64,000 nt of DNA from Botryllus schlosseri (taxonomy: Eukaryota). Shown here piece after piece: positions 1 through 62,500 of the stretch. The notes beneath the pieces are model-generated. The model saw only the letters and a program-made list of their open reading frames with translations, did not search any database and had not been told where the DNA came from. Both the position numbers and the translations under genes were made by a program. Location: positions 17,796,001-17,860,000 of the forward strand of contig CM119372.1 in the NCBI GenBank assembly GCA_051294905.1, read 5' to 3'. Numbering within the stretch: the stretch's first letter is position 1; each line of letters begins with the position of its first letter.

Positions 1-2
1 AA

Positions 3-1109
3 GACGATATGAAATTTCACCTTCGGACCGTCGAATACTTGCTCGGTTGCTCGTCAAAAGTGAAAGATATCATTGTATTCGGGATGATATCGCAACTCAA
101 AGTTCGGAGATATTTTCTCGAAGATCTCACCGGCGCTGTTGAACTGGATATGTCGAAAGCCAAATTTCACTCTGGATTGTTCACCGAAAACTGTTTTGTG
201 TTGGCAGAGGGCTGGTATGACGACAATATATTTCACATAACAGCAATCGGCTTTCCTCCGTTAGAAACGGCAGCCACCACAAGAGCATATTATGGCAAAA
301 CTAATTTATTTGGAGGGAGTTGCAATCTTTCTGCGAGTGCTTTGTCGAATGCCAGGGAATTTGAGATGCGCAACGATGATGCGATGATAGTCTTATTATC
401 GGATGTATGGCTTGATCAAGAACGAGTTCTCGCAAAACTAGAAGCATTGTTCAGTGGCTTCAAAGATTCCCCGCCAATTTGCTTTATATTTTGTGGAAGC
501 TTCATATCTGACACGCATAGCGCAAACCGTGTTAAAGTACTGAACGATTCATTGAACAACTTGATGAGAGTTATCCTGAAGTTTCCAGATCTGAGCTCAC
601 AATCAAAGTTCATATTTGTTCCGAGTATGGAGGACAGTGGTCCCGCAAAAATCTTGCCGAGACCCGCAATACCAGAAATGATGACCGAAAAGTTTGTTCA
701 AGAGATTCCAAATGCCATTTTTACATCCAATCCATGTCGCGTGCAGTATTGCTCGCAAGATATTGTGATATTTTGTGAAAACGTGTTTCATAAGATGATT
801 CGAAATTGCTTGCAGTGTCCATCTGATGATCTCCCGTCTCATTTTGTCAAAACCATATTTGCGCAGGGCCATCTTTGTCCTTTACCTAACGAAATTGTCC
901 CAGTGTATTGGCAATATGATCACGCGTTGTGGCTTTATCCCCTGCCCGATTTGGTCGTAATCGCAGATAGCCACGCGCCATCTTTCCAACAGAGCGACGC
1001 TATCGGTTGCACAGTCACTAACCCGGGATCTTTTTCCAACGGAGGATTTTCATTCAAGGTTTATTACCCCTCATCGAAAGTAGTTGAAGATAGCATTATT
1101 GGTGATTGA
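3..1109 (+). CDS. POLE2: DNA polymerase epsilon subunit 2 (B subunit), 5'-partial; uninterrupted ORF
   Basis: Motifs KFHLRTVEYLLG, FHSGLFTENCFVLAEG, IGFPPLE, LSDVWLD, LPRPAI, SNPCRVQY, LYPLPDLVVIAD and NPGSF match POLE2/Dpb2. The frame is open to the window start, so the ATG at 9 is probably internal. Confidence 0.96.
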   Translation, partial: DDMKFHLRTVEYLLGCSSKVKDIIVFGMISQLKVRRYFLEDLTGAVELDMSKAKFHSGLFTENCFVLAEGWYDDNIFHITAIGFPPLETAATTRAYYGKTNLFGGSCNLSASALSNAREFEMRNDDAMIVLLSDVWLDQERVLAKLEALFSGFKDSPPICFIFCGSFISDTHSANRVKVLNDSLNNLMRVILKFPDLSSQSKFIFVPSMEDSGPAKILPRPAIPEMMTEKFVQEIPNAIFTSNPCRVQYCSQDIVIFCENVFHKMIRNCLQCPSDDLPSHFVKTIFAQGHLCPLPNEIVPVYWQYDHALWLYPLPDLVVIADSHAPSFQQSDAIGCTVTNPGSFSNGGFSFKVYYPSSKVVEDSIIGD

Positions 1110-1177
1110 TATTGTGCGGTATAGTTCGCTAATTTATTTTATGTGAATTTGTTTATTGTGAATTGGACACCAATCAT

Positions 1178-1198
1178 ATTTTTCTGTATATTTTCCAG
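1178..1198 (+). promoter_or_regulatory. Splice acceptor upstream of KIFBP (candidate trans-splice site)
   Basis: tttttctgtatattttccag|G lies 89 nt after the POLE2 stop and 15 nt before the KIFBP ATG. Confidence 0.65.
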
Positions 1199-1213
1199 GT
1201 CAACGGAATCACT

Positions 1214-2959
1214 ATGACACTGCTGCCACCTAATCTTTTAACATATATGTCGGAAGAGGGTTATGATAAATATAAAAAGATACGCCACTTGTTTGACGAA
1301 GACAGTAAATGCGATCCAGAGAACGACCCCTTCCGGTCAGCATACAAGGCTCGTGAATTACTGCAAGAAATTTCAAATAAAGTTCATGTAGAACGTGAAT
1401 GCGACGGCGCTCATGTCGGATTGAGAGTGCTTGAAGGTTCCTTGTGTTATCAACTTGGATTGAATTACATATTCTGTGAAGAACGACCGTGCGGCGAGGA
1501 ATATTTGCAGAAATCTGTGACCCTACTGAAGGACGATCTCGACACTGGTAATAGCAAGGATGCAGTTTCAATAGTCATGGCTGCTCAAACGGAACTTGGC
1601 ATACTCTGGGCAAGCCGTTATCAAGGCGCAGAACAAGCTTTATCGATCTTGGAAAAAGTGGAATCTTCTTACCACGAATACAAACGCAAGAGCGATCACG
1701 CACCGTTGACAATCGACGAATTGCTCAGCCCGCCAGAGGAACGATTGACTGACGCCGAGCGCAGGGAAAAGTTCGAAAATATATACACGCACGCGCTTTT
1801 TTATTTGGCGCAAGTCCATAAGAACTTAGGGAATAATGATCTGGCCGCGACACATTGCCAGAGAACGCTACGACGGCAACTAAAGATTGGAAATTACGAC
1901 AGGAAAGAATGGGCCGTGAATGCCGCCGGTCTGTCGCAGTATTTCATCACCAGAAACATGTTCGCCCAAGCTAAGCATTGCCTGTGCTGCGCCAATGTTG
2001 TGATCGAAGAATGTGAGACCACTGCGTCAGATATGGAAACCGCCGTGTTTCAACGCAAAGCAGACATTGCTCGGTGTTGGGTGAAATACTTCCTCGCATT
2101 GCTGGAATATTCCAAAGAGAAACTGTACGACGATGTCTTGGAACTGGATCGGGACAGGCAAACCAACGCTCAAATCGCCCAAGACGAAGAGGACGAGATT
2201 AAAAATCCCTATCGCATGCCAATGGAGCTGGGTGTCGAGGAAGAAAACACACGTCACCAGCCGATCGTCACATTTGAGGAGGCGAGACAAGTTTTTCTTC
2301 GATGTAAAACATACGTAGACTTTGCTCTCAAGTTTTTCGTTATGGACGGATATGTGACCGATAACATTGAGCTCGCGCAGGACATGAGCGCTTTGTACAA
2401 GCATCTTTTATTTTTCGAGATCGCGAAAGATAGAAAGTGTAAAATGCACAAGCGCCGGGCGGATCTCATCACCGGCGTACTGGAGGAAATCAATCCGCAG
2501 TTTTATCTTCTGGTCTGCAGGCAGTTGCAATTCGAGCTCGGAGAGATCTACAGTGACATGGTTGATTTGAAAGTAGAAATTGCGAATGAGACAAACCGTC
2601 CGGCTGGGCCGCACGCCGTGAAAAAAATCAACAGTCTCTGCCTCTCCTCCATTAAATACTTTCGTGAATTTTTAGACACGTTGAAAAACCCGAACGGAGA
2701 ATTTCCCGGAACGTTGGATGGCGATGTGGAACGCCCGGCTGTCGTAGCAAACTTCTACCTGGCACGTTTGCATTCTAAAGTACTCGCTTCGGAGCAGCAG
2801 GAAACACTGGATTGGAAAAGACGCAGTCTGCAGTTTTATCAATGGATCGTCGATTACGTTCAACGCAATCCAAAATGCACGCCGTCAGTACAAAAGGAAT
2901 TTGAAATTTGTCAAGAAATGGTTGTGCTCTTGCCCAAATCACTGGACAGGCAACTTTGA
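1214..2959 (+). CDS. KIFBP: KIF1-binding protein (kinesin-binding protein, TPR-like helical); single-exon ORF
   Basis: DPENDPFRSAYKARELL, YTHALFYLAQV, EWAVNAAGLSQY, KCKMHKRR and NPQFYLLVCRQLQFELGEIY match KBP. First ATG after the acceptor (AG 1197-1198) is at 1214. Confidence 0.93.
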   Translation: MTLLPPNLLTYMSEEGYDKYKKIRHLFDEDSKCDPENDPFRSAYKARELLQEISNKVHVERECDGAHVGLRVLEGSLCYQLGLNYIFCEERPCGEEYLQKSVTLLKDDLDTGNSKDAVSIVMAAQTELGILWASRYQGAEQALSILEKVESSYHEYKRKSDHAPLTIDELLSPPEERLTDAERREKFENIYTHALFYLAQVHKNLGNNDLAATHCQRTLRRQLKIGNYDRKEWAVNAAGLSQYFITRNMFAQAKHCLCCANVVIEECETTASDMETAVFQRKADIARCWVKYFLALLEYSKEKLYDDVLELDRDRQTNAQIAQDEEDEIKNPYRMPMELGVEEENTRHQPIVTFEEARQVFLRCKTYVDFALKFFVMDGYVTDNIELAQDMSALYKHLLFFEIAKDRKCKMHKRRADLITGVLEEINPQFYLLVCRQLQFELGEIYSDMVDLKVEIANETNRPAGPHAVKKINSLCLSSIKYFREFLDTLKNPNGEFPGTLDGDVERPAVVANFYLARLHSKVLASEQQETLDWKRRSLQFYQWIVDYVQRNPKCTPSVQKEFEICQEMVVLLPKSLDRQL

Positions 2960-3586
2960 TGGCTGATGAGCATTGTATCAGTATGTTTTAATTTTTAAAT
3001 TGGTCAACGTCACTGTAGCTTCAGCGTTAGTCACCTTTATCGTCTCATGCAGTATTATTAGTTATTACCATCTCGGTAACCGTGTCACTGTAGTTTGTTA
3101 TAATGTTGAAAAATGGTATCAATGAGAAACTGTTCTGCAGCGTTTGCTTATTGTCATGAATCTGTGAAACTAATAATTATGTTGCATTATTAGCTCAATA
3201 CGTGATACGACACATGAGACACTATGAACAGATTGGATGTCGAATTGATCAACAGCTCATCCTACTGGTATTCCTTGTAGCAATACTTGGCTTTTTTGTG
3301 AAGACGCTGTTATTACAGCAGAGCAGGGTATGAGCTGGAATGAACCTACAAAACCTGCTATAACCTTGACAGGAACCACAATCTCTCGAGCGGATGCATT
3401 TAGACCAGTGGTTCCCAACCTTTTTTGACTCACCGCCTCCTTATCAGGATCGACACAATTTTTCACCCCCACACCCCATATTTACGGATTCGATAAAGAG
3501 GACGTATCAACAGGAGATTTGTTCACCTGACTCTGATCGCTGTTGAATTGACTAAAAAAGGACATTTTTTGTGAGACGGTGCTCGG

Positions 3587-4836
3587 CAGGGTTGTAATGA
3601 CTCGAGTCATGACTCGACTCGAGTCACGTTTTTTTTTGTGACTCGACTCGAGTCAATATTTGGATTGACTCGACTTGTACTCGAGTCATTACGCATGACT
3701 CGACCCCAGTCAATGACTCGGCTTATTTTATATGACTTGAAGATGAATAAATTTGCGAATCGTAATGGCTAGTTCAATACATCTGACGAATTCTGCCGAC
3801 ATCGCTATTTGTCACCACTGCTTTCGTTGCACTCGTCTGATATCAAATATGCCGCCGCAAAAACGACAGACAATGGTACCATAGTGTCCTATATGGTGTC
3901 GACACAGCCAAATCTCACGCCTCAGAAATTGATTCACGTCACAATTTCGATTTGGCTACAGGCAATTTGAAGGCCATTTTTGACCGGCTTGACGAGCATT
4001 AAATTTGGTAAAACGGGTATCAATCGAAAGCTGACTCTGCACTGCTTACGAAAATATAAATGTTATTCCGCTCGTGGCCCTGGAACCCCCACAATCGGCC
4101 TCGCATTTTTCATTGTTATGGAGATAGGCATTGAGACGCAACAATGCTGCCAGGCACTTTTGCTCTTGAACTATACTCTCTCGTTTCGCCAGACAGCATT
4201 GTTGCGTCCCAATGCCAATCAGGGTCATACCAACCCTGCTCTCACTCAATAACCATGCGACTAGGTATTTTTAGTGAGAAATTTTTTCATATAATATAAT
4301 TACATACTAGTAGTAAGCCGACTATTTTTTCATATCCAAAATATTCTACTCGAATAACTTCATTTCTTCTAGTTGGAATTTGCTATGAATCATATTTTTA
4401 CACAATGTAACAATATCATGAGATAGCCGGTAAAATTCGAAAATCTCTATTTGTAATTAATCTAAAATTTTCTTTCATAGCATTGCTTTTTACTGGTTGG
4501 AATTGAGCCAAATTTGATTTTTTTAGGCAATCTAACAATTTTAAGAAGTAGCCGGAAGAAGTAGTCAAAACTCTGATAGGGACAAAATGAGCATGTTTGG
4601 CAAGCTAGGAATTCGATATCACCCAAGCAGGATTGAAAACATGAGCTGAACATGACTTCAATACTGTGACTTGGACTCGACTCGAGTCATAACACTATGA
4701 CTCGGACTTGACCCTTTAAACGGTGACTTGGACTCGGACTCGAGTCGGTGATGAATTGAAAATGACTCGACTTGACTCGAGTCAAAACCACAAAAGTAAG
4801 ATTGACTCGGAACCATGTGACTTGGTTACAACCCTG
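3587..4836. mobile_element. hAT-type MITE family A (GACTCGAGTC subterminal repeats)
   Basis: TIR CAGGGTTGTAA / TTACAACCCTG; perfect 8-bp TSD gtgctcgg (3579-3586, 4837-4844). Confidence 0.9.
3880..4220. mobile_element. Foldback element family B, left arm only
   Basis: Begins CATAGTGTCCTATATGGTGTCGACAC; colinear with the copy starting at 51895. Confidence 0.8.
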
Positions 4837-6624
4837 GTGCTCGGAGAACCTGTTTCCTCGACTACTTCCCGCTGTGTCAACTTCCGAGTCATATGCAGAA
4901 TAAGTGTTCATGTGCGTTTTTTGGCCGTGTTAATTAAACATATCCCACTGGAAGTGCTAACATTTTGCCCCTGTCGCCTCCCAATAGCCACCCTTGGTAT
5001 TTTCGCCCCCTCGTTTTTCAAAATCGCCCACATTGGAACCACTGATTTAAACTAACTGCGCGATCTCTCCTGACTATGAAATGTGAAGAGATGTCATTGA
5101 TTATAAATCCTGTTACCACAAAAATGATTTGTTTGATCAAATGCCTCTACACCACATGTCGAGGTTAGGTCTGTAGCGAGATATGACATGTCATATTAAC
5201 AAATGGTGTACATCAGAAGCAATTGAATTGTAGAATTTTCAAGATAATGTTATTGGCGATGTTTGTAATCATTGTTAAAGCAGTTATTGCACTAGCGATC
5301 GTGTGAATCACACATTCCTAATATTCTTGACGTCATGCAGTTGTACGTCTGTTGATATTAAAGTAGTATTGGACTCGTCATTCAAACCGCCTATTGATTG
5401 GATGTATGGTCTCAGTCGGGACCTATTCCAACTGAAAGACTTAGAAGTAGTTATTAAGAGATTTCAGAGTACTGTAATTGTTCCACGCAGATGTAAGCAA
5501 AACATTCATTATTAAGAGGAATGACACTAGTTTTGCAGGTTGCAGGTGAACTCTTTTATAGAAACCAACATAGGTAAATTTGGCAGGAATTGTAACCTTG
5601 AAAACATGGTAAACCACGACCGCCACACAGGGTTGTAATGACTCGAGTCACGATTTTCTGGTGACTCAGTCCGCAACCAAGACCAACATTTATTTCATTG
5701 TAATTTCGAAGAATATAGTAAAGTAACCATGCTATTGTGATTTCGTCTATTGGCACTGGTACTTGAAAATGCGACAGAAACCGTTGAAGTCAGGGAAATT
5801 AGCATATTATAAATGCGAATCATTCGATATCGCCAAACTGAGTTATAAAAAGTGCGTTCAACAAGACTTCTACTGGAAATTGAGCAGTCAACGCAATGAC
5901 TTGGACTCGAGTCATAATACCATAACCCGAACCCACAGGCGCCGAGTTACGGGGTGGCGCAGCCACCCCATGACGCATTTATGGGGTGGCGGCCACCCCA
6001 TACAATAAGATTAAAAGCCCGCTGTGTGCGATATCAAATCAGCCCGTGGTAGCGCGTAAATGCCAACTATTTACCATTAACCGGTACGCGCGCGAATGAT
6101 TGAATACGCAGCTTCGTTGGCGACGACGAACTAGTGCTTATAACGCCCCAATAAATTGTGATCCGTGATTAGTAATCAGACGATCGAAGCAACCTCGCTT
6201 ACGACGTCGATTTCGACACCCTTGCGCTGAGAAACACCATCTTCTTCTCTCTCGACAGACGGCGAATTCAACCGCTCCTTCTCTTAAATTGTATTTGCGC
6301 CCATATTTGTTTACAAAATAATTCATGAGTTAGTTCCGTGATAGTCTCTTTAATTGTAGGCTTGGAGCGCGAAATAGGACAGTGTGTTTGTCTATACGGC
6401 CGTCAACCAAACTTTACGCTGATTGGTTGAGAGACAGTGGCCATGGATACGGCGCAGCAACGGAGGACGCTGTATTTACCTAAGCCTAGTTGTACTACGA
6501 TGTATTCCTATAGCCGTGTAGACTGCATAAAAACGACAAGATTACAGTTAAATGTTTATTTCTTCATCAATAATAAAATTAGGAAAGGATATTAAATATT
6601 TAGTAACGTATACTGAAATATAAT

Positions 6625-11145: not shown

Positions 11146-11687
11146 CTACGACCCCTCGTCTTCGCTGTCCGAGAGTAGCTTCGCCGAGTCAACCGCACCC
11201 CATTTGTTGCCATTCGCGAATTTTACGTCGTGTCGCCTGCCGTCACCCAATTCCCCGTCCGTCGAATGGTTCGGCACATAGCTGTACTGCGTAGAGTCTC
11301 CGCGTACGCAGCATTTAGCCTCATTCCCGCCGCGGCAGAAATGCAAACAAACAAACAGAATCCCAAACAAAATCACTGACAACACGCAAACGCCAACGGT
11401 CAAGGCGTAAGTCACGTTAGTCTGTGAATAGCTGATTTCAGATACACACCTTCCGGCGGCCATCTTAAACCCAGATTCACACGACTTGCAGTTATGTACC
11501 TTCGATCCGTTACACGAATCGCAATGCGGCGCGCACAGCCGACAGATCTTAAACCCTGCCGACCTGTCCTGGTCGCTTTCTCTGGGCACTTTTTCCCCAG
11601 TCTTTTCGTCAGCGAGATATTGACCTCGTGGACACCGTTGAATGCATCGAGTGCGATCCACGCTCAGGGCGTAGGCGTCTTCGCAAG
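11146..11687 (-). CDS. FURIN: Furin last coding exon (Cys-rich, TM, cytosolic tail)
   Basis: CEDAY...[10 protein letters not shown]...[13 protein letters not shown]...[28 protein letters not shown]; tail YSYV and [14 protein letters not shown]. Confidence 0.88.
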
Positions 11688-14600
11688 CTTGGTACCGAAA
11701 GTATTCGGTTGAGACAGGGTGAAGTCATCGTAGCGTCGTCAGAGCAGGCCGAGAAGTCGTCGGGGAAGAGATGAAGCAAAAAACAAACAAATTACTACGG
11801 GAGAGTGAGATGGAACTGTTAGTGAGCCACCGAGCTCGAATTGTTTCATTTTAAATCTTTTAAACGGAGCTTATCACACTGTAGAACGGAAGGAGAGCTT
11901 CATGCAGCGACGTGAAACCATGCACTAACGATGAGAAACAACATTCATGCGTTCGCAGAACCACCTTGTGCGCAATGCCAATGCGTATCGTGCAACATTT
12001 TTCTAGTCCTAAACCTGCTACAAACACCACTCCGGATCAAGATATGTACAGAGGCGGTCATGGTTCAAGCTATTAGTTTCGAAATTCAATTTGATGAACG
12101 TTTCGCATGCCTTTAGCAGTCTATCGGAAGTAGCTACCTTCAAAATGGCAAGATGTATCTGTATCTGCACAGTCATATCAAAATCAATTTCTAGTTTTCA
12201 AAACCCAAATTGTAAGAAGCAGTTTGTCTGTAATAGTTTAGTCTGTTCAAGTGAAAGTGGTCTATAAACATAAACATTTGAGTAAGTGATGCAAATACGC
12301 ATAACCTACTTTTGACTACTCTGATAAAGTAGCAGTACCTCGGCACCGGACTGGAAAACACAGAAAATGAATGAGACGGTGGAAATTAATTCGTTAATCA
12401 AGATCAAACATGTGAGATCAATTACAAAACTCGACACACAGTCATATCAATAATAAATGACTCGAGACCTTTCAGTCGGGATGCTAAGAGAACTTTAACT
12501 TCCGCCATTCAAGGCTGCAGCGAAAGCCCAAAAAGTTAATCCACACAAATTGAAAACTAAATGTTAGAGTTAATTTTAAAAAATTCCAGAATCGGAGCAT
12601 CACCGTCAAACGTGACGGCGATCCATGATGAATATTCATGGCCGTCCGGAGAGTTAAACAAGATTAAACATGCGGGATAGTAAAATAAGTTGGGAAAGAA
12701 TACAAAGGAGCAGAGTATGAATATGCACGAGTCAAATACCTTATTTCATCAGACAATCGAAATGCATCTCGAAATTGAAAACCTTCCGTTTTCATTAGTA
12801 GCTCTGGTGGCAAGCTAACAGTTCGTTTGCTGGCTATCGCTAGATGGCACAGGGTTGCGTTAAAATAAGTGTAAAGCAGTCGGCATATTTTACTCTCACT
12901 AGACTAGAAATAAGAAATCAGATATGAACAGGCGTTCTTTGTTAGAAGACACCCCGCAACATATCAAGTCCCAAGTAATTTCACCCCCATGGATTACACC
13001 AGCGCTCTGTGCCGTTCACAAGCGCAAGAAGTCAGCATGCCGAATAGGCTTGGCAAATAACATTGCATCATTGCTTGAGCTTTCCATTATGATATACCAA
13101 CATATAGTCGATCCAGTTTGCTTGCAGCCACATGCCAGAAACGTCAGCGCTTCTTTGGTAATCATCTTTTATCTCACATTATCGGTAAAAAAGCATTGGC
13201 ATGAAGCTTCAAGCAATGTCATCAAAATTTTTTTAGGTACTTTCATTCCTTCAAGGAATATGAATCCTTTCAATTAAAATTTAAAATTCATTTTGAGTGC
13301 CAAACAAAGTCAACCACATTGTTTTAAAATTGAAATTTGCAAAAAATAATGATTAAATCATTACAGATTTCGAGAAACAGTTCCCAGCAACACATTTCAA
13401 CTCTGCGCCACAAGTTTTGCATATTTTTCAATATTTCGTGCATGTTTATCAATATGTTATCCACTAAAAACAAACTGGAACCAAGCCAATTGATATCGAC
13501 TGTCCGATAACCTCAAACAGCTCAAACTACCTCCACTTAAGACTACAGTAGCCAGGTAGAAAATATGACATCTCAAGCACCCGTCACATACAACACTGCG
13601 TAAGTATAATATCGAGTTTGTCTCACTCAGATATACAAAAAACCCAAGCCATGCAAACCAGCATCGCGTGAACAACATCATCCAAACGAGCGCCAGCAAT
13701 CTGGCACAACTCTCTCACATACCAGCACACACGATGCAAGCAATGCTGCCTTTCAACCATCGAAGGTTCCAGTGCCGATTACGTGCCGTAGTAGAATGAC
13801 ATAACGATGTTCACCCCACAACCAACACCGAGCACCAAAATTCCCGGTGAGTCAACGACATTCAAACCTCTCCCATATGAGCACAGAAAGCAAGGCAAAC
13901 GTCAACATACCGAGGCAAATTCGTCCGGCTTCGTCGCGAGCTTTGCAATTGCCAGGGGTGGTCGATTGGTGTTTCCTCACTGCATAAGAAAATGAATTCG
14001 TAAAGAAGTCAGCAGTGAGGCTCAAGTAGAAGTAACATGTAAACTTCTAATCAAATACGGTTCATGTAGAAGTACCGATTTCCAAGACATGTCAAATTTA
14101 GTCAAAAATCAAAGTAAAAAATTTAAGGTCTTAAGAATATTCAAGTGGTTTCAAAAAGCAGATTTGGTGGAGGGATTACATACTTATAGCAGATCATTGT
14201 AGGATGCTACTTTCAAAATTGCAAGATGTTTTTTTCGCGGCAAACGCAAAATGACTAATGACATTAGAAACAGGTAGAATCTTCGAAAGTACGTTAAGCA
14301 ATCATGATACACGTTGTCCTGACAGCTTGAGTATTATGAAAAAGTAGGAGTGGTTCTTTACAGACCACCTCTGCCGTGCATGCGGGCGTCATGAATCTCA
14401 CCTGACTTGTCGTCAACCACCTTGGCTGCAACGTCAGTGGTGCTGGCGGCGTCCTACATAATGAAAAAACAACTTGCTTCACAGACACGATAAAAAACAA
14501 TGGGGCGAGCTACCTTGTCTTCGCCATTGAGGAGACCTGACGGCCAATCTTTGTTCAGCGTTCCAAAGATCACAAGTTCAAAATACTCGACGAAACCTGC

Positions 14601-17600: not shown

Positions 17601-20600
17601 TTACTGAAGTTGAAGTACATCAGATTAGCGATTTCCAAGTAAATAAAAAGTATTCTAGGCTTGGTTTTGCTTAAAACACTGAAAATTATTAGGTAGAAGT
17701 AAAAGCAGAGTAAAAACATAACCGCTTTAGTAAGTAGTGCAAGTAGGGAAAACCTAGGTGGGTAATCCGTAAAAGTAGAAGTACTTCACAATGACCGCCA
17801 CTGTCCGTTACTGGGTTGGTCTGCCGATTACTTATAAAGTCCGGCTGTCTCAAGCGTACCTTTTCGGCCCGCGCCATTTACAACCCAATCGTTGGCCTTC
17901 AAAAGATCAGGGTTCGCGGTTCTGACGACGATATGCTGCATGTCTCTCCATGTAATATCGCGGCTACCGGGGAAAAACAGCCAATAAGAGCACGGTATCT
18001 TAAAATTATCACAGACCAGCAGCAATATTACTTAGCCTCTAATGCAAGGGCGCAGATCCCCGCCGCTAAAGGGGCCGAAGCTGACGTCCCAGTATGGGTC
18101 TCCGTACATTTTTTATCCAGGTCTGTCGTAACCTGCGAAGCAGAAAAAACGATGAGTGTGATGCAATAAAAGGATGACTGAGATCTTACACCAGTTGGTA
18201 AAGGTAGCTTAGAATGTCGCGAAAAGTTGGAAGAAGGCCTACAGGATGAGCTGTACCCGAATGCAAGTGGATTGAGACATCGCTGTGTAAGAGAAGGCTG
18301 TTTTCTTATGTTTGTGTCTATGCTTTAATACAAACATGGAAAAGAGCAACTTGACATCAGGAGAATTTAATCTATCCTGTAGTTCTGATCAACATAGATT
18401 TTTCAAAACCTCACTCTCATTCTTCGCACAATCGTCGATCATATCACAAAGACAGGGCTGGCCGCGAACAAAACAGCGAAAATGCCACATTTTTTCCTCA
18501 ATTTATCCTTAATTTGAGATCACATCATATTTACAGTGCAGTGCCACTTTAATACTCAACTAAGAATCTAATCTGTAAGGTACTCGATTTTGCCCAGCTC
18601 TATCCCGACACAATTGACATTGACATATACCTGCTGAGTGCATAAGAAATCATCCGTTCAAAAAGTGGAAATATTGCAATTTACTCCTACTGCGTCTCCA
18701 CTGCATCAAACTCCCGACACGACGCGCTGGTTTGACTTACAATTTGCTTTTCTGATGAGATCCCGCTGCTGTACGTCGTGGCGAGTGTAGACGAGCAATC
18801 TTCCGAATACCAAGGCTTGTTCGTGTTCTGCGTCGTGCTGCTTATCGACAGCGTGTAGATCGAGTTTGTGTAACCGTCGCAATTACAGTTGTCGTGCTTT
18901 CGGCCTCCGTTTCCCGAAGCCCACACGAATATCGATCCCTTGCCCCCGCGACCCTTTTGAGATCGTCCAAAATCAATCAATCGGTGTCTCGGGAATTTCG
19001 GATTGACAATCCCAATACGGTAATCAATGGTTTTGTATATGAATTTGTGCGAATGTCAAAACATCAGATATATCGATAGCAAATGCGTAACGAGATTGTA
19101 ACGATCGATTCAGGGAGCGAAGCGCAGGACGTGTAATACTTGTAGCTTGGAAATTCGACAATTCCAGGGCCCAAGGTATACAATTCGGCATAACGTTAGT
19201 GTGACAATGTGAGATTGGTCGAGACAGGAGACGGGAGTCGAAGGGCAGCCGTGAAGAATATTATTACGTTCGTTCGCTTCAAGGACTATCTATTGTAATG
19301 TAATTACTAGTGATACAACCGTTATTCATGAAAACGCTAGTTATCACAACAATGGATCTTATGTTTAGGAGCAACGAGATATGTACAAGCTATGGTGGTG
19401 TCAGTGTCAGAAACAACCACACAATTTACAGCGCGGTCAAAGACATTCGCAAAAATGAAAAGAGCGAAAGTAGGCCAGCATATAAACGTCCAACACATTC
19501 CAACATAGGAAACTATTTGGCTGCGTGAGTAATTTTCCACGTGAAAACTATGGACCGATACTTGAAACACGTCAAAAAGATTGGTTCAACATATTGTTAC
19601 TGCGAGTAAAATGCTTACACAAGAAACAAGTTATAATATTATTAATATGATGTTTTTTGTTAGATACAACCGAAGCAACGTCTTATAAGAGCCTAGAAGT
19701 GGGCCATTCTACAAGAAAATTGGCCAGGTGTAAATGACCATAGTAGCCACTACAAACAATATGAGTAGGCTACCACAAACAAACAAGCATAGAACTGAAA
19801 TATCATTCCACTTAGCGTGCAACGATAAGACACTATTTTTTTGTCAGCGTTCCCCGTAATAATGATTATTACAAAATAAAAGCACCGCATTCGACGAGAT
19901 CCTGCGTGTGTGCAGCAAACCCACCTGGGTGATACCCTTTTTAAAGGCTGCCTTCGCTTGTTTTGCCGGGCCATCGACCGTGCGGCCATCGTCATCGGGA
20001 CCCCAGGAAGCGCTATAGATATCAATGTGCCCCGGATTTAATCCGATGGAGAGGGCTTCTACTGCATCGGTGACCGCACCATCTAGCATACGGACTCCTA
20101 AACAAACGAAACAAGACCTCTGTGGCATCACACAAAAGCATGCTGACAATGCATTACAGTATATACTGCTATTAAAAAGAAAGCCCGATCGAAATGTCTC
20201 CGTAAGAATCAGCCAACTGTCGCTGATATGTGCCGGTGCCGGCCGGTACAATGACATCGGCACTTCATCTATCGAGGCAGTCTTGCTTTCGTGTGCGCCG
20301 CACTTTGTTGAAAATAGTAATGGGATTTAGGGATCAAATTGGAAATCCCCAAATCGGGTTTTTAGCTCCGTAATCCAGGAAAATTTCTGCATTAGCAAAA
20401 GTAGATAAATATGCATGCAAGCTACACAAACCACGTTTATTGTAATGGTACTGCAAAAACACAAGAGCATGGAGAATATCATCCAACCATTTCTGATTTG
20501 ACTGGCAAAATATTCAAGAGCTGAAAATGCACGTTCAGCCAAAACTTCAACTTTTCTATCCCGCATAAGGTTTTCTGCCCTTCTTTGCATGTTCATACAG

Positions 20601-44237: not shown

Positions 44238-45375
44238 GGTACAATACACTGCCCAACTGCACATCCGTGAGAATATAAACGCGTAAACTACATTCGTTCG
44301 ATTTATATCAAACAACATGGTTGGTAAAGGTGAGCGGATCCGCAATGTAAGCACTGAGCTGTCTAAGAAGCAAAGATACACGTTAGCGGTCAAATTATTT
44401 GTGGTGTGAAAATGGAGAATGAGTGAAATGTACAATCAGCGAATGACTGGTTGCTTTCACTAATGACACCGGCGTATCGAGAACAACCCGAACATACATA
44501 AGATATGGTTATTTAATCGACACAGTTTACTTAATGACTTGAAATTGACTCGTGAATTTTGCTCCGAGTCACGAGTCAATCCACATTTTCGAAGCGCCGG
44601 GTCAAGTCAAGTCAAGTCATTTTTGCAAAGTGACTCGAGTCAAGTCACACGAAAAAGGTGACTCGAGTCATCCTAACACTGGTATTCAGTGCCTATATGT
44701 AGCTTAGGCTACCACCTCTGTGAGAGCCTTTCGTCGAAGCGAATCACATTGAAATCGCAGTAATTGGCATTCACCTCGACCTCGTGCCCGATGACACAGT
44801 TTTTGTTCGATGTTGATCTCTATTCCTCGGCTTTTTCCATTCCTAGTGAGTGCGTTCTTTCGTCGGGTCTATTTCTGGGCTTTTTTGTCGCCGTAGGAAC
44901 AGCGACGCGGGGGAAGAGGAGCCCAGATAAATCTTCGACGCAGAATAGACTCCGGGCCACCCGGGTAGCAGGCGTTTATCGTCACCACTAGGCTACCCCA
45001 TGTCTCTAAAGTGTCCCTACTAGCTGCTACCAACCCTATTTCAGCAATACACATTGAATTACAAAAGGATGTCTTCTCAATTGTCAGCGTGCGTAAACGT
45101 TTTCATTTATTGTGTCACTGTAATGAAAACGTACGATACCGGATAGGATCATGCGACCTCCGCGGAGCGGTGTTTATGTTCAGCTTACTGTCATGTGGGA
45201 GTCATATCAAAATCATACTCGCTGATGATAATCCTGTTGAATGAGTTAAGGAAATCTGAAAAATACGCATTGAAGAATTCCAAAACAACTTCACACGATT
45301 CTGAACAAAGGCAGAAAAATGCCTGCCAATCTACTCGAGAATTTAAATTCAACATCATCCGGCTTCTGAACTTAA

Positions 45376-45857: not shown

Positions 45858-46188
45858 TTAAGTTTTGATAGATATCAATATTTACCAAATTATTAAATAT
45901 GAACATTCACGATCTCCAATCTCATCCGTCTTGTGAGAACAATAATTGATCCGAACACATTCTGAAAACCCCAAATACACAGATCTCAGTTCACGATGAG
46001 AAAATTCACAAGCATTCAAGGGCGTTATATCATTGAAATTGCACAATACACATACTAAGCAAAAAAACAATGCTACAGATTTTACAAATAGTATAAGAAA
46101 AGAATGAAAGCAGCTCGAGAGGTAATTTCCGATACCCGGAAAACAGGCGTATAGCAGACAGATGCTAGAGCTGGACAGAGTAGGCTTA

Positions 46189-49100
46189 TCAGGACACAGC
46201 GGGAACTTCCAGGCGCGGTAATATCGGGGCGATCTGATTCAACCACAAATTAGCACAGGGAGAATGGTAAAACCGCCCGCAGTATTCCAATCCCGTTACG
46301 TCGGTAGACTCAGTGTCAAGCAAACACAGACTGCACGTAGAACACACCGGCCCCTCCGAATTCGAACGACCTCGGTGTTCCGGAGTTTTATGCACCGAAG
46401 GCGTGTACGGACAGAATCCCAACAAATTGTTCCATGCTATCTCGATCTCTTTGAGCAACAGCACCAAGTCGTCGTCCGTCAGTCTGATAATCTCCATACC
46501 TTTTCGAATACGTCTGGCCACCCCGTACACTTCGCTAGTGCACGCGATGAATTCCTTTCCGCGACTTGAATTCACAACCTCGTGGCAAACCGCCGGACTA
46601 TTCAAAGCCGCAAATATATCTCCGGTCGATACGATTATATCCTTGCACGTCGTGAGACATCGACTCCAATGATCTACAAATACTTCTGTCGGATTCGAGG
46701 AACCTTCCATTCTCGCTTTTATCTGATTGCCTTCTTCTTCCCATTCGGCAGGCTCTGGCTTGAAAGAGTAAGCTGGCTCTGCTTCAAAGACAGTGGGCTC
46801 TAAACTCCAAGCAGCTGGCTTCGTGTCGTTTTTACGTTCTGTATCGGTACTGCCGGTTTCAAATGATGAAGTGTCGTCATTGATTTTGTGTTCAGTGATA
46901 CTTGAGTCCTCTTCGCCGCAGGATTGATCAGCTTGATTTGACGTTGAAGTAGTGCTTTCGTTCGAATGTGCCGGTTTCAAATCGACGACACTCGATTTCA
47001 CAAATTCGCTGAACGCCGTCGCGTCTTCGCTCGTTCTTTTGAACATGGCTTCCTTCTTTTTATGCGCCTCTACTTTAGCTTCCTCGAAATGACCGAACGC
47101 GTCAAAGTCGACAAGCGACGAGTCCCCTTCTTCAGGTTCTAAATCAAGGTCGTGCCGATCAATATTATCGTCGATTGGAGGCGGGGCTGTGGAAAAATCA
47201 CCGAAATCATCATCGGATTCTGAGATTCTCGCACGTATTTTTGCAAGCTTCACTTTAAAAGGCGGTGGCTCTTTCGGACTGGCGGTAACAACAGGCTTTT
47301 TCTGGAACACCGGCGATATCGGGTCGTCCAAATCATACAGACCGTCGTCAGCACTTGATTTCGGTGGATTCGAACTGAATAGGATGGGATCTGAAGCTTT
47401 TTCTGCAAAAATGTTTGGAGTGGGAAGAGATGTCGTGCTGGCGCTAAAAAATAGATCCTCGGACGACTTGCCATTTCCAATAGAATTACTCAGAATTGTC
47501 TTCGATAAACTCGGTAATTCCAGGGATGTGACCGATTGTATGTCATCTGTTTTAGACATATTATTTGAAATAAACGATTTTTGAAAAGGTTCTGGCGCAA
47601 AGACAGGTACGGGAGGCACAGACTGAAAATTAGAAAAATCGTCTTCCACCGCAGGCTCATTGGTGCTACCGATTTCCACACCTCGCAAAACTGAATATTT
47701 ATCAGCGCCGTCGGACTCTCCGTTCGAGCTGGCATCAGTCTTTTGCGAAGATACCGGATTGAGTTCTCGAAAAACAGAATACTTGTCCTTTTTTTCAGCC
47801 ATTATAGTTGGTTGAACGGATATGGATGTGTTGCTCGTAGTGTTGTCAAGCCCCGGAAAAGCTGCAAACAAATTTGCGTCCTGCTTTGGTAATGGTGCTT
47901 GCTCGGCACTTTTAAAGTCGTCAAAATCGTCGTTATTAGTTTTCATTTCCGTAGTGTTCACTCTCTTTGGCTGCTGAGAACCAATGTTTAGCCTCCTAGC
48001 AGCAGAATGGAGCACTTTTGAGGAGGTGTCATCAAATTTTTTGAAGTCAATGCCTCCAAGTAATTGTTTCGGAGGTCTTTGGGGCGATAAATCTGTAGTG
48101 GAAATAGATTTTGGGCTATTCATAATGTCACGGTCAGGATAAGACGTGGTTTGCACTTTTTCGGCACCAGAAAATGTGGAGAAAGATTGGAAATCGTCAA
48201 AATCATCTGAAGCGGCCGCATTTTCAACTTTGACAGATTCAAATGCAGAAAACGACTGAAAGTCTGTAAATGCATCAGCACTGTTGGAGCTGACAGGTTT
48301 AGGTTGTGCTGAAACCAGCGGTTGGATTACGAACCCAGCAGTTTGATTTGTCGGATTTACAACAGGTGCCTGCAAGTTGACAAGTTCACTCAAGGCCGAG
48401 TTAGTCTTCTGAGGTAGCTTTATATCCGGCATCGGCGCTGCTGGTAATCTCATGACGTATCTCACAGTCAGATCCATTTCACCTTTTTGCGCCAATGCGA
48501 TCAAGGCCAGTGCAGTGTAGACTTCTGTGAAAGTTAGCTGCCCAGGGCTAGATTGGTTTACAGCGGTCCATATATGTCCCAAAACATCCTTTGGTAGGCC
48601 AGAGCTCAAGAATATCGGATATAATAAACTTGTGTCTGCGAAACTATTGGAGGTGGCACAATGTTTCAGAACTTCTTTGTACAACTGCGGAATAAGATTG
48701 GGATTAGTCATCCACGCAGGCAAAGTATTTATACGTGGAATAGATGCAGGTGCAGGAGGATGGAAAACAGCATCGGCAATATAAGGTCGAGTTTGTCGGG
48801 CCTCTTGGAAATTCAAGTGAGACTGATGTCCGGGCATCAAGTGAGGATTTGAATTCTGATGTGAAGGATATTTAAGTGCAGTATCCGGGAACACATTGGG
48901 CTGAATAATGGATTGATAACTAGGCGGCATAACAGCACCAGGAGGAATGGCGTTAACGGATGGGCCGGTAGCAGTCACACCCTGCCAGCTTCCTGGAACA
49001 TTTTGTTTGACGTTGGTCTGATTAAATGTTCCTGCCAAAGGAGGTTGAACAAACTGCTGATTATGACTGACACCAGAGCGATCTATTGGATGTAGGTTCA

Positions 49101-49440
49101 AGTTTTGATTACCTTGCGGTAAAACAGTTAGATTTTGCTGCCGCGCGTAAACATTAGGCGCTGTTACAGGCGCAATAAATTCGTTAGACTCCAGACTAAG
49201 ATTCTTCCAATCGGCAGAGCTGGAACTTTGCTTCACTGCGGCGCCTTGTGGCCGTTTTCCGGCATGTCTGGCAGGTTGCTGGAACTTGAAGTTGGCTCTT
49301 TGGTTGGAGCCGGAAAGGTCAAAAGAGGATAATATCTTGGCATTCAAGTCGATAGGTTGCTTCACTCCACCTTGTGGTGCTGGCTTCACCGGAAGACTCT
49401 GCTTCACAGGAGCTTGCAGAAAATCTCCGAAATCGTCCAT
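46189..49440 (-). CDS. SYNRG: Gamma-synergin (AP-1 gamma-adaptin-binding EH-domain protein); single-exon ORF
   Basis: EH domain (DTSLLYPIFLSSGLPKDVLGHIW...PGQLT..EVYTALALIALAQ), repeated DDFxDF gamma-ear motifs, DKYSVFREL, and a C-terminal CSLC...YHSPCANLW. An in-frame TAA 12 nt upstream supports ATG 49440 as the start. Confidence 0.9.
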   Translation of the reverse strand: MDDFGDFLQAPVKQSLPVKPAPQGGVKQPIDLNAKILSSFDLSGSNQRANFKFQQPARHAGKRPQGAAVKQSSSSADWKNLSLESNEFIAPVTAPNVYARQQNLTVLPQGNQNLNLHPIDRSGVSHNQQFVQPPLAGTFNQTNVKQNVPGSWQGVTATGPSVNAIPPGAVMPPSYQSIIQPNVFPDTALKYPSHQNSNPHLMPGHQSHLNFQEARQTRPYIADAVFHPPAPASIPRINTLPAWMTNPNLIPQLYKEVLKHCATSNSFADTSLLYPIFLSSGLPKDVLGHIWTAVNQSSPGQLTFTEVYTALALIALAQKGEMDLTVRYVMRLPAAPMPDIKLPQKTNSALSELVNLQAPVVNPTNQTAGFVIQPLVSAQPKPVSSNSADAFTDFQSFSAFESVKVENAAASDDFDDFQSFSTFSGAEKVQTTSYPDRDIMNSPKSISTTDLSPQRPPKQLLGGIDFKKFDDTSSKVLHSAARRLNIGSQQPKRVNTTEMKTNNDDFDDFKSAEQAPLPKQDANLFAAFPGLDNTTSNTSISVQPTIMAEKKDKYSVFRELNPVSSQKTDASSNGESDGADKYSVLRGVEIGSTNEPAVEDDFSNFQSVPPVPVFAPEPFQKSFISNNMSKTDDIQSVTSLELPSLSKTILSNSIGNGKSSEDLFFSASTTSLPTPNIFAEKASDPILFSSNPPKSSADDGLYDLDDPISPVFQKKPVVTASPKEPPPFKVKLAKIRARISESDDDFGDFSTAPPPIDDNIDRHDLDLEPEEGDSSLVDFDAFGHFEEAKVEAHKKKEAMFKRTSEDATAFSEFVKSSVVDLKPAHSNESTTSTSNQADQSCGEEDSSITEHKINDDTSSFETGSTDTERKNDTKPAAWSLEPTVFEAEPAYSFKPEPAEWEEEGNQIKARMEGSSNPTEVFVDHWSRCLTTCKDIIVSTGDIFAALNSPAVCHEVVNSSRGKEFIACTSEVYGVARRIRKGMEIIRLTDDDLVLLLKEIEIAWNNLLGFCPYTPSVHKTPEHRGRSNSEGPVCSTCSLCLLDTESTDVTGLEYCGRFYHSPCANLWLNQIAPILPRLEVPAVS

Positions 49441-49508: not shown

Positions 49509-49522
49509 CTGAAAATAAAATC
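49509..49522 (-). promoter_or_regulatory. Splice acceptor upstream of SYNRG (candidate trans-splice site)
   Basis: attttattttcag| on the minus strand, about 70 nt before the ATG and about 615 nt after the SEC22 stop. Confidence 0.55.
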
Positions 49523-50125: not shown

Positions 50126-50773
50126 TTAAAGCCACCAATACCTTATCCATATGAAAAAGATAATCAACAGCACCACAACCGCTGCTATTTTGGCATAGGC
50201 TGATCTCAGATTCAACGAATATGCATCTTGCTTATACTTCTGTGACAAAGTGGCAAGGTTACTAGCTTTGTTTCCAAGTTCATCGAGAGCTACTCCACGC
50301 TGCAGGACGTCATCAATGTTGGATACCATGATTCTTTGGACATCTTGTAGTTCGTTGGCGACATGTGATAAGTTATGCTTCGTCCTGGAATCTGCATAGC
50401 TCTTTTTTGTCTTTTGGATATATGTGTCAAACTCTATGAATGCATAGGGCCTTGCTACTGAAGTTACTCTGTTGCCATATTGCACAAAGAATTCTGATTG
50501 CAGTTCCTCTAAGAATGAAAACGCCAATTTTTTGCTGAATGCTCTCTCACATAGGACCAGGTAACATATTCCTTTTCCTATCATGTAGTGAAATACCAGA
50601 GGACCAGTTTCGATCGTGCATCGGTCTGGACTTTGCTGATTCAATTTTCGGAACAACATCTTGGCTTGATTTTGATAGTCTGTCAGACTACGTCCACCTT
50701 GTTCATCTTCTTGCATCGACGCAGCAAGGGGCAAGCCATCTGCCACACGGGCAATCATTGTCAGTAGAACCAT
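50126..50773 (-). CDS. SEC22B: Vesicle-trafficking longin R-SNARE SEC22b; single-exon ORF
   Basis: [54 protein letters not shown] and a C-terminal TM ending RYWWL. Confidence 0.97.
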
Positions 50774-58020: not shown

Positions 58021-58749
58021 ATGACTTCGTTAGTGTTTTGGGGCTGTTTGTTCACTGCTTTCGGACCAGCTGCATCCATGGTGGTGTTGACGATCGCCAG
58101 ATACCCTCTCCGGGTTATCCTTCTCGTCGTCGGGGCTTTCTTCTGGCTGGTTTCGCTGTTGCTAACATCACTGCTGTGGTTAGCAGTCGTGCCACTCCGT
58201 GAGGAAGCAGCCTTCGGACTATTCATTGGAGTAATGCTCCAAGAAATACTGAGGTTTTCAATGTTAAAACTGATGCACAAAGCAGATGCTGGACTAGAGG
58301 ATTCATTGAGCGAGGAAGAAAAGAAGTCAATCGCCAGACATAGACTGCCTTATGTCATTGGACTCGGATTCGGACTAATGAGTGGATCGTTTTCTATTCT
58401 CAATCTCCTCTCGCTGGCACACGGACCTGGAAATGTTGGAATCAACGGGAATTCTTCCAACTTTTTCCTCATGTCTGCTTTGTTAACTAATGCGTTTGTA
58501 CTTCTGAATACCTTCTGGACCGTAATTGTGTACGATGGATTGTCTAAACGAAAATATTTGTCTGTAATTATTGTGATTTCTTCTCATTTTTTACTTTCTG
58601 GACTTACTCTCCTCAATACTGATGGCGATTTGTATATAATTTCCTTGGTTTTTTCATATGTTTTCCTGTTCTTGATGATGTCATGGTCATTTAAAATTGT
58701 TGGAGGGTCTTTGAACAATCTTAAAACTGTCATCTCATCGCTATGTTGA
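58021..58749 (+). CDS. APH1: Gamma-secretase subunit APH-1; single-exon ORF
   Basis: MTSLVFWGCLFTAFGPA, PLRVILLVVGAFFWLVSLL, LQEILR, the GLGFGLMSG GxxxG motif, GPGNVGI and SHFLLSGLTLLN; multi-pass TM profile. Confidence 0.97.
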   Translation: MTSLVFWGCLFTAFGPAASMVVLTIARYPLRVILLVVGAFFWLVSLLLTSLLWLAVVPLREEAAFGLFIGVMLQEILRFSMLKLMHKADAGLEDSLSEEEKKSIARHRLPYVIGLGFGLMSGSFSILNLLSLAHGPGNVGINGNSSNFFLMSALLTNAFVLLNTFWTVIVYDGLSKRKYLSVIIVISSHFLLSGLTLLNTDGDLYIISLVFSYVFLFLMMSWSFKIVGGSLNNLKTVISSLC

Positions 58750-59344
58750 AAGGATCAAAGCTGAAAGACCAACCACAGTAATAACTTGTAGGCCTGCTGA
58801 TTGTAACATATTTTCATATATAATACCTAATATTCAACTGTTGGGGGTAATAATTAGGCTACTTCATGATTAAGATCAACAGAGAGACATAATTTCTCAT
58901 TGCTGTGTAAGACTCATCACTTCCAGAGCAATGAAGTGAGAAAGATGGTTGTGTCTTGTACATGAGTAATTGCATTATTGTTGCCAGAATCGATAAGCCC
59001 ATATATATTTTTGTCATAATTAGAATGTTGGTATGTTATGATCATGATGTAATTTTTCTAGAATTGATTGTCATGCCCATTGCCATGACCCACCGGATGT
59101 CACACATTTAGATTCAAAACTTTCGTCCAAATTCAATGTGTCGTGAATTACCATATGGGAAAATTGGTAATATTGAAGTTTGATCTGCGTATTGATTCTC
59201 AAATAACATATCTATCAGAAAGAATGCATGAGCAGTACATCTGTATGTTGGCCTACCAGGAGTATTTGTAGAAATTGCAACTAGGGGATTTCAGTGCCCA
59301 TACACTTTCCAATGACCGTTTATCATACAAATTGTTGATGATAT

Positions 59345-59361
59345 CTTTTGTACTCCAGCAG
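59345..59361 (+). promoter_or_regulatory. Tandem CAGCAG splice acceptor upstream of PIGT (candidate trans-splice site)
   Basis: cttttgtactccagcag|G lies about 610 nt after the APH1 stop and about 55 nt before the PIGT ATG. Confidence 0.55.
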
Positions 59362-59415
59362 GTTGAGTAGTTGAATCTTACTTATTTATCAAAATGTGAT
59401 GCAACTGTCGAAACA

Positions 59416-59581
59416 ATGCATAGACTAGATCTCTGTGTGTGTTTGTTTGTGATCATTTGTGGTATAGGCTCTGCGACGGACGTGGCCGAGGAAAGCTTGA
59501 CACTGAAGGTCACAAATCAAGCCCAGCTTTATACAGTTTTCAACTTCTCAGTTATTACAAGCTATGCAGGGGCTGCGGAAG
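59416..59581 (+). CDS. PIGT: PIG-T exon 1
   Basis: MHRLDLCVCLFVIICGIGSA signal peptide, EESLTLK...FNF; donor G|gtaata. Confidence 0.8.
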
Positions 59582-62500
59582 GTAATAATAATACACTCCT
59601 TAATTTTCTTGCTTTGTTATCGCTGTTTGTGTTCGGCGTTGAAGAACCCCTTGAAGGGCCAAATATTCAAACTTATGAGTATGGTACTAAAAAAACAAAT
59701 TGTATTTATTTTTGTGTTACACATGATTTGAGATATATATATTTTCTGGTGTCACAGCCAGAGGTGGTCAGTAATGAAGTACTTCTACTTTTTGAAGTAC
59801 TTGAGGTAGATTTTGCCTACTCGAACTACTTATTGAGTAGTTATGATTTTAGACTACTTCTACTTCTACTTGACAGTTTTCAGTTTCTTATGCAAAAATA
59901 TTTGTGTACAATATCTACTCACTTACTTGTAAACCGCCACTCTTACTTCTACTTGAGTAGAAATTCCGGCGTTACTTCTACTTCCACTTGAGTAGCGGCG
60001 GTGACTACTTTGACCACCTCTGGTCACAGCAAACCGTGAAATTTTGATCTTATCTTTCTTTGTTCCAGGCTACCATTATCACCTTTTCCCCCGAAACATC
60101 GGTAATTTGGTGAAGAAATACAGTGTCGCCGAGTTTCATTTGTCGATGACGCAAGGTCTGTGGAGATATGAAAACTGGGGATATCCGGATTTTTCAGCCC
60201 CACCTGGGGCTCAACTCTGGGTTTGGTTTCAGCATGGTGTGAAAGAGTGAGTCAACGTCTTTATTAAAGGTTCACTGCACTCTAAAAATGATGTGGTCTC
60301 AAATTGAAGGGCAAAACGAAAAAAAATTTGGCCGCAGCCGTTTTTTTCAGAACGCCACCGTAATGGAGCTGCAATTTATTGAAATTTCAATAGCAACTTC
60401 ACGCTGGATCAGTCACGCAGAGATCGAACTTTATATAGTTGTCAGCCGATGTTATGAAGCAAATATGTCGTACATGCCCTATGTCCTAAAGAAATAGAAT
60501 ACACTAGGCCCGATTTTGATATAAATATCCTGACTGAACATCTTCCGTTGAACGCAGTATCTAAACCACCTTGGCGTGTACGACGTATTTTCTTCATAAC
60601 AACTGACAACTATATAAAGTTCGATCTCTGCGTGACTGATGGAGCATGAAGTTGCTATTGAAATTTCAATAAACTGTAGCTCAATTACGGTGGCGTTCTG
60701 AAGAAAACAGCTGCGGCCAAAATTAGTTTGTCGTTTTGCCCTTCAATTTGAGACCACATAATTTTTAGAGTGCAGTGCCCCTTTAACTAGATATCGTGAA
60801 TGTGGTCTCTAAACATTTTTTGTTACACGTAATGTGCTTTAATATTGACTAGGGTAGATTGGTCTGGCATCTAGGGTAGGTTGTCTCGATGCCTACCTTT
60901 GTCATCATAATATAATTTGTGCAGCAGCGGTATCTCTTGAGATACTTGAAAGTTATGAGCATACATGAAATTCAAGCGATAAAATATCTTGCTCAATTCT
61001 AGAATCCAGTATTTGTGCTATCTCTCACCCAACCACTTACCACCAACACATAGCCATCCTAAATACTTCAGGGTTATGCGAAATAATTCTTGTTGTTTTC
61101 CCCGTTACGCATTGACTGCACTAGATGTGTGATGTCTTGAAAATCTCTTGCATGGTCGAAGGCCCAACAGCATGAAACTACTCACTATAGTCTATAGGTG
61201 CTTGATTTTGATTTGATTAAAATTATAGTTTTAAATTTTGATTAAAGATGTATTTTCACGTTGGAAAACCGTTTGTGTATTTTTGTCCAGTGTTGATGCA
61301 GCTTGGAGAGGTTTCGCCAACGCGCTATCTGGATTGCTCTGCGCTTCGCTGAATTTCATCGGTAAAACCGAAACTGTGATCCCAGAGCTATCATTTCAGC
61401 CAGAAGGCTATCTGTCAGGTATAAGCTTGAAATGAAATTTCGTCTTTCGTAAATCCGATGGCCAATTTTCAAATAGGCGAAAATAGGCATTATATAAGGT
61501 ATGCAGTACTGCCGAGGGAGAATCTATGCACTGAAAACCTCACACCTTGGTTGAAGCTGCTTCCTTGTGGATCAAACGTGAGTTTTGCCAGTTGATGAGT
61601 TTTGGTTGTGGCTCGGCCGTGATTCGATTGTGTTTAGAGTCCTTACTTGCAATTCTGTATGATATACACAGATGTGGTCAAAGTAGTCAGCGTTTCCACT
61701 CAAGTAGGAGTAGCATTTTTAAGACCTGTCCAAATTACTTCAAGTAGAACTAGAAAATGAAAGGTTTGAAAAGAAATCAATCTATTTCAAAAATTAGCGA
61801 GCCATCAAAGGGTCACACATCTGTTGTAGTTGATCAAAAGTGGCTACTTTCGAAGAAAAAAAATGGTAACTGTGCATTGGTGGAATCCTCGGAAGTATAT
61901 TTTTAGTATCTGTGCTACAGCCGGGTTCGATTTTACACGGTTCTTATGATAATGTCACTCATGAGTGATGTAAACTCATTCTGACACTACTTTCAACTTT
62001 CTAAAATCCAAATTCAAAAAAGTAAGCAGTATTGCAGAAGAACAGTACAATTAGAAGTGGCTCGTGCAGGCAAAAGATTGTAAAAGGAGAAGTACTTCGT
62101 TACTGACCACCTTTGGATATACCTATTTGAAAGATCCGTCCACAAGCTGTACTATTGCTGTATGACTGCTAGCATATTGTCAATACTTGTCTAAATGCAA
62201 TTTTCGGAATACTCTGGTTCATAGAATTATAGAGTGCCATAACAGCACCAGTAATGAGGTTTGGAACAATATCGATATTTAATGCGATCCGAAAAATGTA
62301 ACGAATATTTTACTATCACAGAACGGGATATCACGCTTGATTGACCCGGCAAATCTTCACCATAGCAGATTTCTTTCGCTCGGACTGGACTTCAAATACA
62401 CCTGCACGGAGGTGAGAATTTACTGTGCTACATAGGGCTCTGTCATGTAGATGTAGCAGCCTGAGCTAGATCCACTACTTGGGCTTGAGTACTGACAGTA

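Follow-up and report, generated by a model that had tools for sequence, protein, structure and literature searches.

POLE2 and KIFBP probably form a Ciona-type operon without intercistronic DNA in a stolidobranch ascidian

In the 64,000-nucleotide stretch of DNA that was analysed (the window), the genes for POLE2 and KIFBP follow one another on the + strand, and it is highly probable that they form an operon of the Ciona type, that is, one without intercistronic DNA. The POLE2 RNA end, reconstructed at 1198 +/- 1, and the KIFBP RNA start lie at the same AG, at 1197-1198. The original prediction, made from the bare sequence, had proposed a dicistronic unit that joins a replication subunit to a kinesin regulator. 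The operon part of this proposal is upheld by the ascidian host, by the RNA ends that coincide at the AG, and by non-genomic letters at the start of the KIFBP RNA; the suggested functional coupling between replication and kinesin regulation, in turn, was dropped, because there is no evidence for it, because the two genes are unlinked in Clavelina, and because the members of Ciona operons are not tightly co-expressed.

Both genes are intact and lie on the same strand, with the TGA of POLE2 at 1107-1109, the ATG of KIFBP at 1214-1216, and 104 nt between them, all as originally placed (Table 1). Approximately 155 N-terminal codons of POLE2 lie upstream, outside the window; the part within it matches Pfam DNA_pol_E_B (E=2.5e-44) and residues 161-523 of human POLE2 (E=8e-138), while KIFBP matches Pfam KBP_C (E=1.8e-113) and human KBP (E=2e-118). 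Since each of the two aligns to its Styela clava counterpart as a single colinear stretch, neither gene carries an intron in the window.

Table 1. Features of the POLE2-KIFBP locus, in positions of the window
Feature	Position	Strand	Basis
POLE2 (DNA polymerase epsilon subunit B) CDS, last 368 codons, intron-free	3..1109	+	Styela POLE2 159-523 in one colinear match, 63%
T-rich POLE2 3' UTR of 89 nt, free of poly(A) hexamers, includes the acceptor signals of KIFBP	1110..1198	+	RNA end reconstructed at 1198 +/- 1
Conserved stretch ahead of the acceptor: likely branch point, pyrimidine tract, AG	1168..1198	+	P0004 read-through match
Acceptor AG, border of the two cistrons	1197..1198	+	Start of the fit of X1 record 5
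KIFBP 5' UTR, 15 nt, presumed spliced-leader addition at G1199	1199..1213	+	Contig start, coordinates
KIFBP (KIF-binding protein) complete CDS, 581 aa, intron-free	1214..2959	+	Pfam KBP_C, human KBP and Styela clava matches
KIFBP 3' UTR, ending mainly near 3190 and possibly extended to ~3350	2960..3190	+	X21, X2 and X1 evidence

The segment between the two coding sequences is 69% A+T and holds only two AGs, at 1123 and 1197. The second of these belongs to the strong acceptor that had been singled out 15 nt ahead of the KIFBP ATG, and its presence is confirmed, in the context TATATTTTCCAG followed by GTC. Counting both strands, the 64 kb contain three exact copies of the 8-mer at 1191-1198, or 0.0024 per 104 nt, and the looser pattern Y6-AG occurs 79 times (0.064 per 104 nt); the acceptor at 1197-1198 is more than a product of chance. 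Its branch point would likely be A1176, with CTAAT at 1129-1133 as an alternative, a choice guided by the branch-point consensus. It is of note that P0004, a KIFBP protein of 92% identity, carries a read-through N-terminus that matches nine of the ten 'residues' encoded, in the KIFBP frame, by the 30 nt before the AG, and the acceptor region is therefore conserved in this relative. The absence of AATAAA from the gap was also borne out, a test for 18 poly(A)-signal hexamers in 1090-1213 finding none of them. Taken alone, however, this absence is weak evidence, because the 3' region of KIFBP (2960-3400) likewise lacks AATAAA and displays only AATAAT at 3172, ATTACA at 3312, and AATGAA at 3339.

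Reads were examined over positions 1-3300 in four of 24 runs (X1, X2, X21, and X23), one from each of four studies. In X21, a single-cell RNA-seq run with 171 reads, all depth runs in one direction and falls into two piles of approximately 120 and 40 reads. Depth is 22.3, 57.6, and 17.7 in the bins 881-990, 991-1100, and 1101-1210, drops to zero in all 11 bins of 1211-2420, and reappears in a second pile at 2751-3300 that peaks at 14.1. These are read as the 3'-tag piles of two separate + strand messages, a chemistry to which their shape points. Internal priming is an unlikely source of the first pile, since no 15-mer in 1100-1240 is A-rich (at most 6 of 15 letters are A). The mature mRNAs of POLE2 and KIFBP are thus monocistronic, as indicated by the two piles, the 11 empty bins between them, and the lack of any bridging X1 contig. 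The end of the KIFBP message is marked by the second X21 pile, by an X2 contig that ends at 3189, and by X1 record 8, which extends 54 letters beyond 3300; KIFBP is proposed to be the last gene of the operon unit, which may include further genes ahead of POLE2.

The junction itself was resolved with X1, which consists of contigs whose RNA nature is presumed. Eight of its 17 records were seen individually, and among these record 5 (402 nt) reveals the start of the KIFBP RNA: its letters 1-398 fit the genome from 1594 down to 1197, while the four letters 5' of the AG, which come from this one contig in one run, misfit it. The last letters of the Ciona leader are AATAAG (PMC1488885), and a leader of that kind would agree with the AG but not with the genomic TTCC. 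Positions for the remaining nine records followed from the depth table: the left edge and 311-462 each take two, 2658-2878 takes one, and 1565-1831 takes at least three, since a chain of two there would be off by 1.0 where rounding amounts to 0.05; one record is therefore left for the POLE2 end. With its start set to 1017, as assumed from the 30-letter overlap in three of three checked X1 pairs, this record is reconstructed at a depth of 15.2-15.4 and with an end at 1196.7-1198.7, from rounded bin means and on the assumption of one record. A model that ends at 1198 predicts 22.9, 15.0, and 10.9 in the three bins, equal to the observed depths; with the end at 1195 the value becomes 14.6, with the end at 1202 it becomes 15.6, and read-through gives 16.7 and 13.1 for the last two bins. 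Outside bins 1-110 and 1541-1870, only a record spanning 1017-1198 accounts in full for the residual X1 depth. As reconstructed from X1, the end of the POLE2 RNA and the start of the KIFBP RNA both map to the AG that had been picked from the sequence. Among the pieces listed, none of 13 bridges 1198/1199, and none that does so is required among the nine further X1 records; no poly(A) loose end is listed in the runs over 1-3300. Since the RNA ends meet at AG 1197-1198, the 104 nt that had been taken for an intercistronic gap are in fact the POLE2 3' UTR and the KIFBP 5' UTR (89 and 15 nt), and the spacer is zero.

The other two runs add little at the junction itself. The POLE2 contig of X2, with a depth of 7.9, reaches no further than 1134, and the KIFBP 5' end is uncovered in that run; the stop falls directly after the branch-point-like word at 1129-1133. 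It is probably due to low coverage, but it could instead mark a minor upstream POLE2 end, analogous to that of Ciona operon 15, which lies 67 nt upstream. In X23, 59 of 62 reads fit only in part. Over 1-3300 the X2 and X21 sequences are nearly identical to the window, and allelic diversity is high: between X1 contigs and the window, dozens of coding positions are mismatched, as many as 14 of them within 253 nt. A loose end of X1 at position 6 was considered as a possible intron and rejected, as X2 record 9 fits from position 1; the 30 letters at this loose end, when read by eye, are further POLE2 codons, from another allele.

Of the known operons compared, those of Ciona intestinalis/robusta are the closest to the arrangement of the window. 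In that species, 19 of 19 mapped operons have directly juxtaposed cistrons, with the upstream poly(A) on the G of the acceptor AG; 16 of 18 lack AATAAA, and dicistronic clones were found for 11 operons only (PMC1488885). The Ciona inventory comprises 2,909 genes in 1,310 candidate operons; of the operon genes 38% are single-exon, versus 15% of other genes, and among 5'-most genes the share is 60% (PMC2760879). With such numbers the layout counts as an ordinary one among ascidians. The likeness extends to unrelated genes on the same strand, an upstream RNA that ends on the acceptor G with the downstream RNA starting at the next base (PMC1488885), the lack of AATAAA, single-exon genes, and an ascidian host (PMC1488885, PMC2760879). 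The window differs in that its host is a stolidobranch, and in that we infer the leader and the precursor. The locus displays every defining feature of the Ciona type for which the result is clear, namely the host, same-strand transcripts less than 100 nt apart, separate mRNAs, and the POLE2 end. Copies of the Ciona leader occur in the window at chance level (three matches with three mismatches, a number reached by 26 of 100 shuffles), and a gapped Ciona-leader motif is absent from it.

Other systems resemble the locus less closely. The SL1-type operons of C. elegans have in common with it a minimal or absent intercistronic stretch and resolution by an ordinary leader, but they are a minor class in a nematode, and in the characterised cases the upstream gene carries the AATAAA that is absent here (PMC1488885). 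In Oikopleura dioica and in the SL2 operons of C. elegans, a polycistronic pre-mRNA is likewise resolved by leader trans-splicing, with spacers of 23-30 nt and of approximately 100 nt, respectively, whereas the pair in the window has none (PMC1488885). An operon of this kind, with a discarded spacer of 23-100 nt, was rejected for POLE2-KIFBP, as the upstream RNA reaches 1198 +/- 1. The fuhc-sec and fuhc-tm genes of Botryllus schlosseri, a colonial styelid in whose literature trans-splicing is cited, are also close, on the same strand, and were once considered an operon (PMC3691228). That pair is separated by a 227-bp intergenic region, its second gene carries no leader, and read-through is preferred by the authors (PMC3691228), whereas POLE2 and KIFBP abut at the acceptor.

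In the mechanism that we propose, RNA polymerase II would start upstream of POLE2, outside the window, and read through KIFBP. The spliceosome would then use the unpaired acceptor AG 1197-1198 to join a capped spliced leader, of which the four non-genomic letters on the KIFBP contig would be a part, to G1199, generating the KIFBP mRNA. The upstream RNA, its last letter the G of that AG, would be polyadenylated without AAUAAA to give the POLE2 mRNA, with the poly(A), by analogy with Ciona, on G1198. Most likely, the cut made by trans-splicing itself would create the POLE2 3' end, to be followed by debranching and tailing, an idea that PMC1488885 brings up for Ciona. The two genes would share a promoter through compactness or historical accident, and not through a common pathway.

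Among the alternatives, the most serious, although we regard it as improbable, is that KIFBP is trans-spliced at 1199 mostly from a promoter of its own inside POLE2, with an outron that overlaps the upstream gene, which would make the pair either independent genes or a hybrid operon. Trans-spliced Ciona genes are mostly non-operonic (9,850 versus 1,404), and regions of the outron type in Ciona have a median of 458 nt (PMC11155486); dicistronic RNA, moreover, was seen in none of the four runs, although contigs drop rare forms. Such a promoter would, however, sit in coding sequence, and it would leave unexplained why the POLE2 RNA ends, within a base, on the acceptor G without a poly(A) hexamer; an end at the AG requires transcription across the boundary, according to an argument made in PMC1488885.

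The two remaining explanations are both far less probable. If 1199 served cis-splicing as a normal acceptor, with a non-coding exon lying upstream of the window as its partner, POLE2 would be nested on the same strand in the first intron of KIFBP, and only chance would have put its end at the AG. AG is a frequent exon ending, and the four misfit letters with the AG could be such an exon end; the contig should nevertheless extend more than six letters into the exon, and there is neither a splice joint listed within 1-3300 in the runs examined nor a GTRAG donor in 1080-1213, making this reading very unlikely. Slightly less credible still is the possibility of two independent close genes, in which KIFBP has a capped start near 1197-1199 and the four letters are an artefact of the contig end. 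The misfit letters do appear in one contig only, and the fuhc pair of Botryllus, across its 227-bp gap, has been interpreted as separate genes, the second lacking a leader, between which read-through is rare (PMC3691228), but here the KIFBP start would have to fall on a strong acceptor of a rare kind, one that a relative has conserved, the spacer is zero, and the adjacency is kept in other species.

An ascidian host is indicated by the best named relatives, those of Styela clava (58% for KIFBP, 63% for POLE2), with Phallusia, Clavelina, and Ciona farther away, and by trees of 14 chosen rows each, in which Styela and Logan proteins join the window in starred sets (100/99). From these comparisons, the host is a stolidobranch ascidian close to Styela, and probably a styelid. 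In the Logan data, the POLE2 proteins P0125, P0127, and P0126 are uninterrupted, 524 aa long, and each on one contig, as are the KIFBP proteins P0007, P0008, and P0009. The POLE2 and KIFBP contigs of these three further species are pairwise equal in length (3980, 7716, and 8362 nt), and of the 3980-nt contig 3360 nt are coding sequence of the two genes, leaving 620 nt for the gap and flanks. The equal sizes suggest that POLE2 and KIFBP are adjacent in all three, and point to the same order and orientation. The three species are mutually 69-70% identical in KIFBP and 83-85% in POLE2, and both trees place them as sister to the window, a position in which long-branch attraction is possible. In Styela clava, both genes lie on one record of 25,446,714 nt with accession numbers 281 apart, a linkage that does not imply adjacency, while in Clavelina they lie on different records in both assemblies. 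Among JGI metagenomes, 32 KIFBP loci included none that was clearly ascidian, and POLE2 accompanied 0 of the 32.

The layout of the pair is ordinary within the window, as two more pairs look alike. SEC22B, an intron-free gene on the - strand (ATG at 50773, stop at 50126) with Pfam Longin and Synaptobrevin matches, is followed on that strand by an intron-free gene for a 1,083-aa EH-domain protein (ATG at 49440, stop at 46189) that resembles synergin gamma. In this pair (50773-46189), a T-rich acceptor ends at 49509, and SEC22B and the synergin gamma-like gene are a candidate for a second operon. A further acceptor is found at 45962 (-), 227 nt past the synergin-like stop, and exons at 19844-20326 and 11146-11724 (-) lie downstream; these two pieces have no Pfam match but look like parts of a furin/PCSK proprotein convertase, possibly a third cistron of the SEC22B unit. 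On the + strand, in the region 58021-60200, an intron-free APH1 gene (Pfam Aph-1) is separated by approximately 610 nt from an acceptor at 59358/59361, beyond which lies a multi-exon PIG-T gene, with Pfam Gpi16 on exon 60071-60199; the two genes form a candidate third operon with a single-exon first gene. The window also contains a dispersed repeat with many short GACTCGAGTC palindromes, identified by eye at 3590-4840 and also at 5635, 5900, and 44580-44670; its tracts at 3595-3720 and 4670-4830 are in opposite arrangement, and it probably represents a family of non-autonomous DNA transposons.

Both POLE2 and KIFBP are multi-exon genes in vertebrates. A tentative account, which we consider possible without favouring it, is that the operon is stolidobranch-specific and arose from two retro-copied, intron-free housekeeping genes, the acceptor of one landing exactly at the 3' end of the other, with the product kept in at least four species. 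A search for literature naming the POLE2-KIFBP (KIF1BP) pair yielded none among the papers listed, and no paper was found on zero-spacer operons in Botryllus or its relatives, subscription journals lying largely outside both searches; two supplementary files of PMC1488885 contained no match for the gene names.

In another sea squirt, approximately one gene in five is already known to be arranged in this way, and the pair described here indicates that the zero-spacer, Ciona-type operon is present in a stolidobranch ascidian too. For annotation, the consequence is that the UTRs of POLE2 and KIFBP abut, and that pipelines may fuse the two genes. How an upstream RNA that ends at an AG and has no poly(A) signal acquires its tail has been called open in PMC1488885 and PMC11155486, a question for which the approximately 1,300 Ciona operons serve equally well. 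If the retroposition account were true, it would extend zero-spacer operons beyond Ciona and provide a dated birth of an operon by retroposition, together with a 3-kb intron-free substrate on which to follow the conversion of a branched upstream RNA into a polyadenylated mRNA without AAUAAA.
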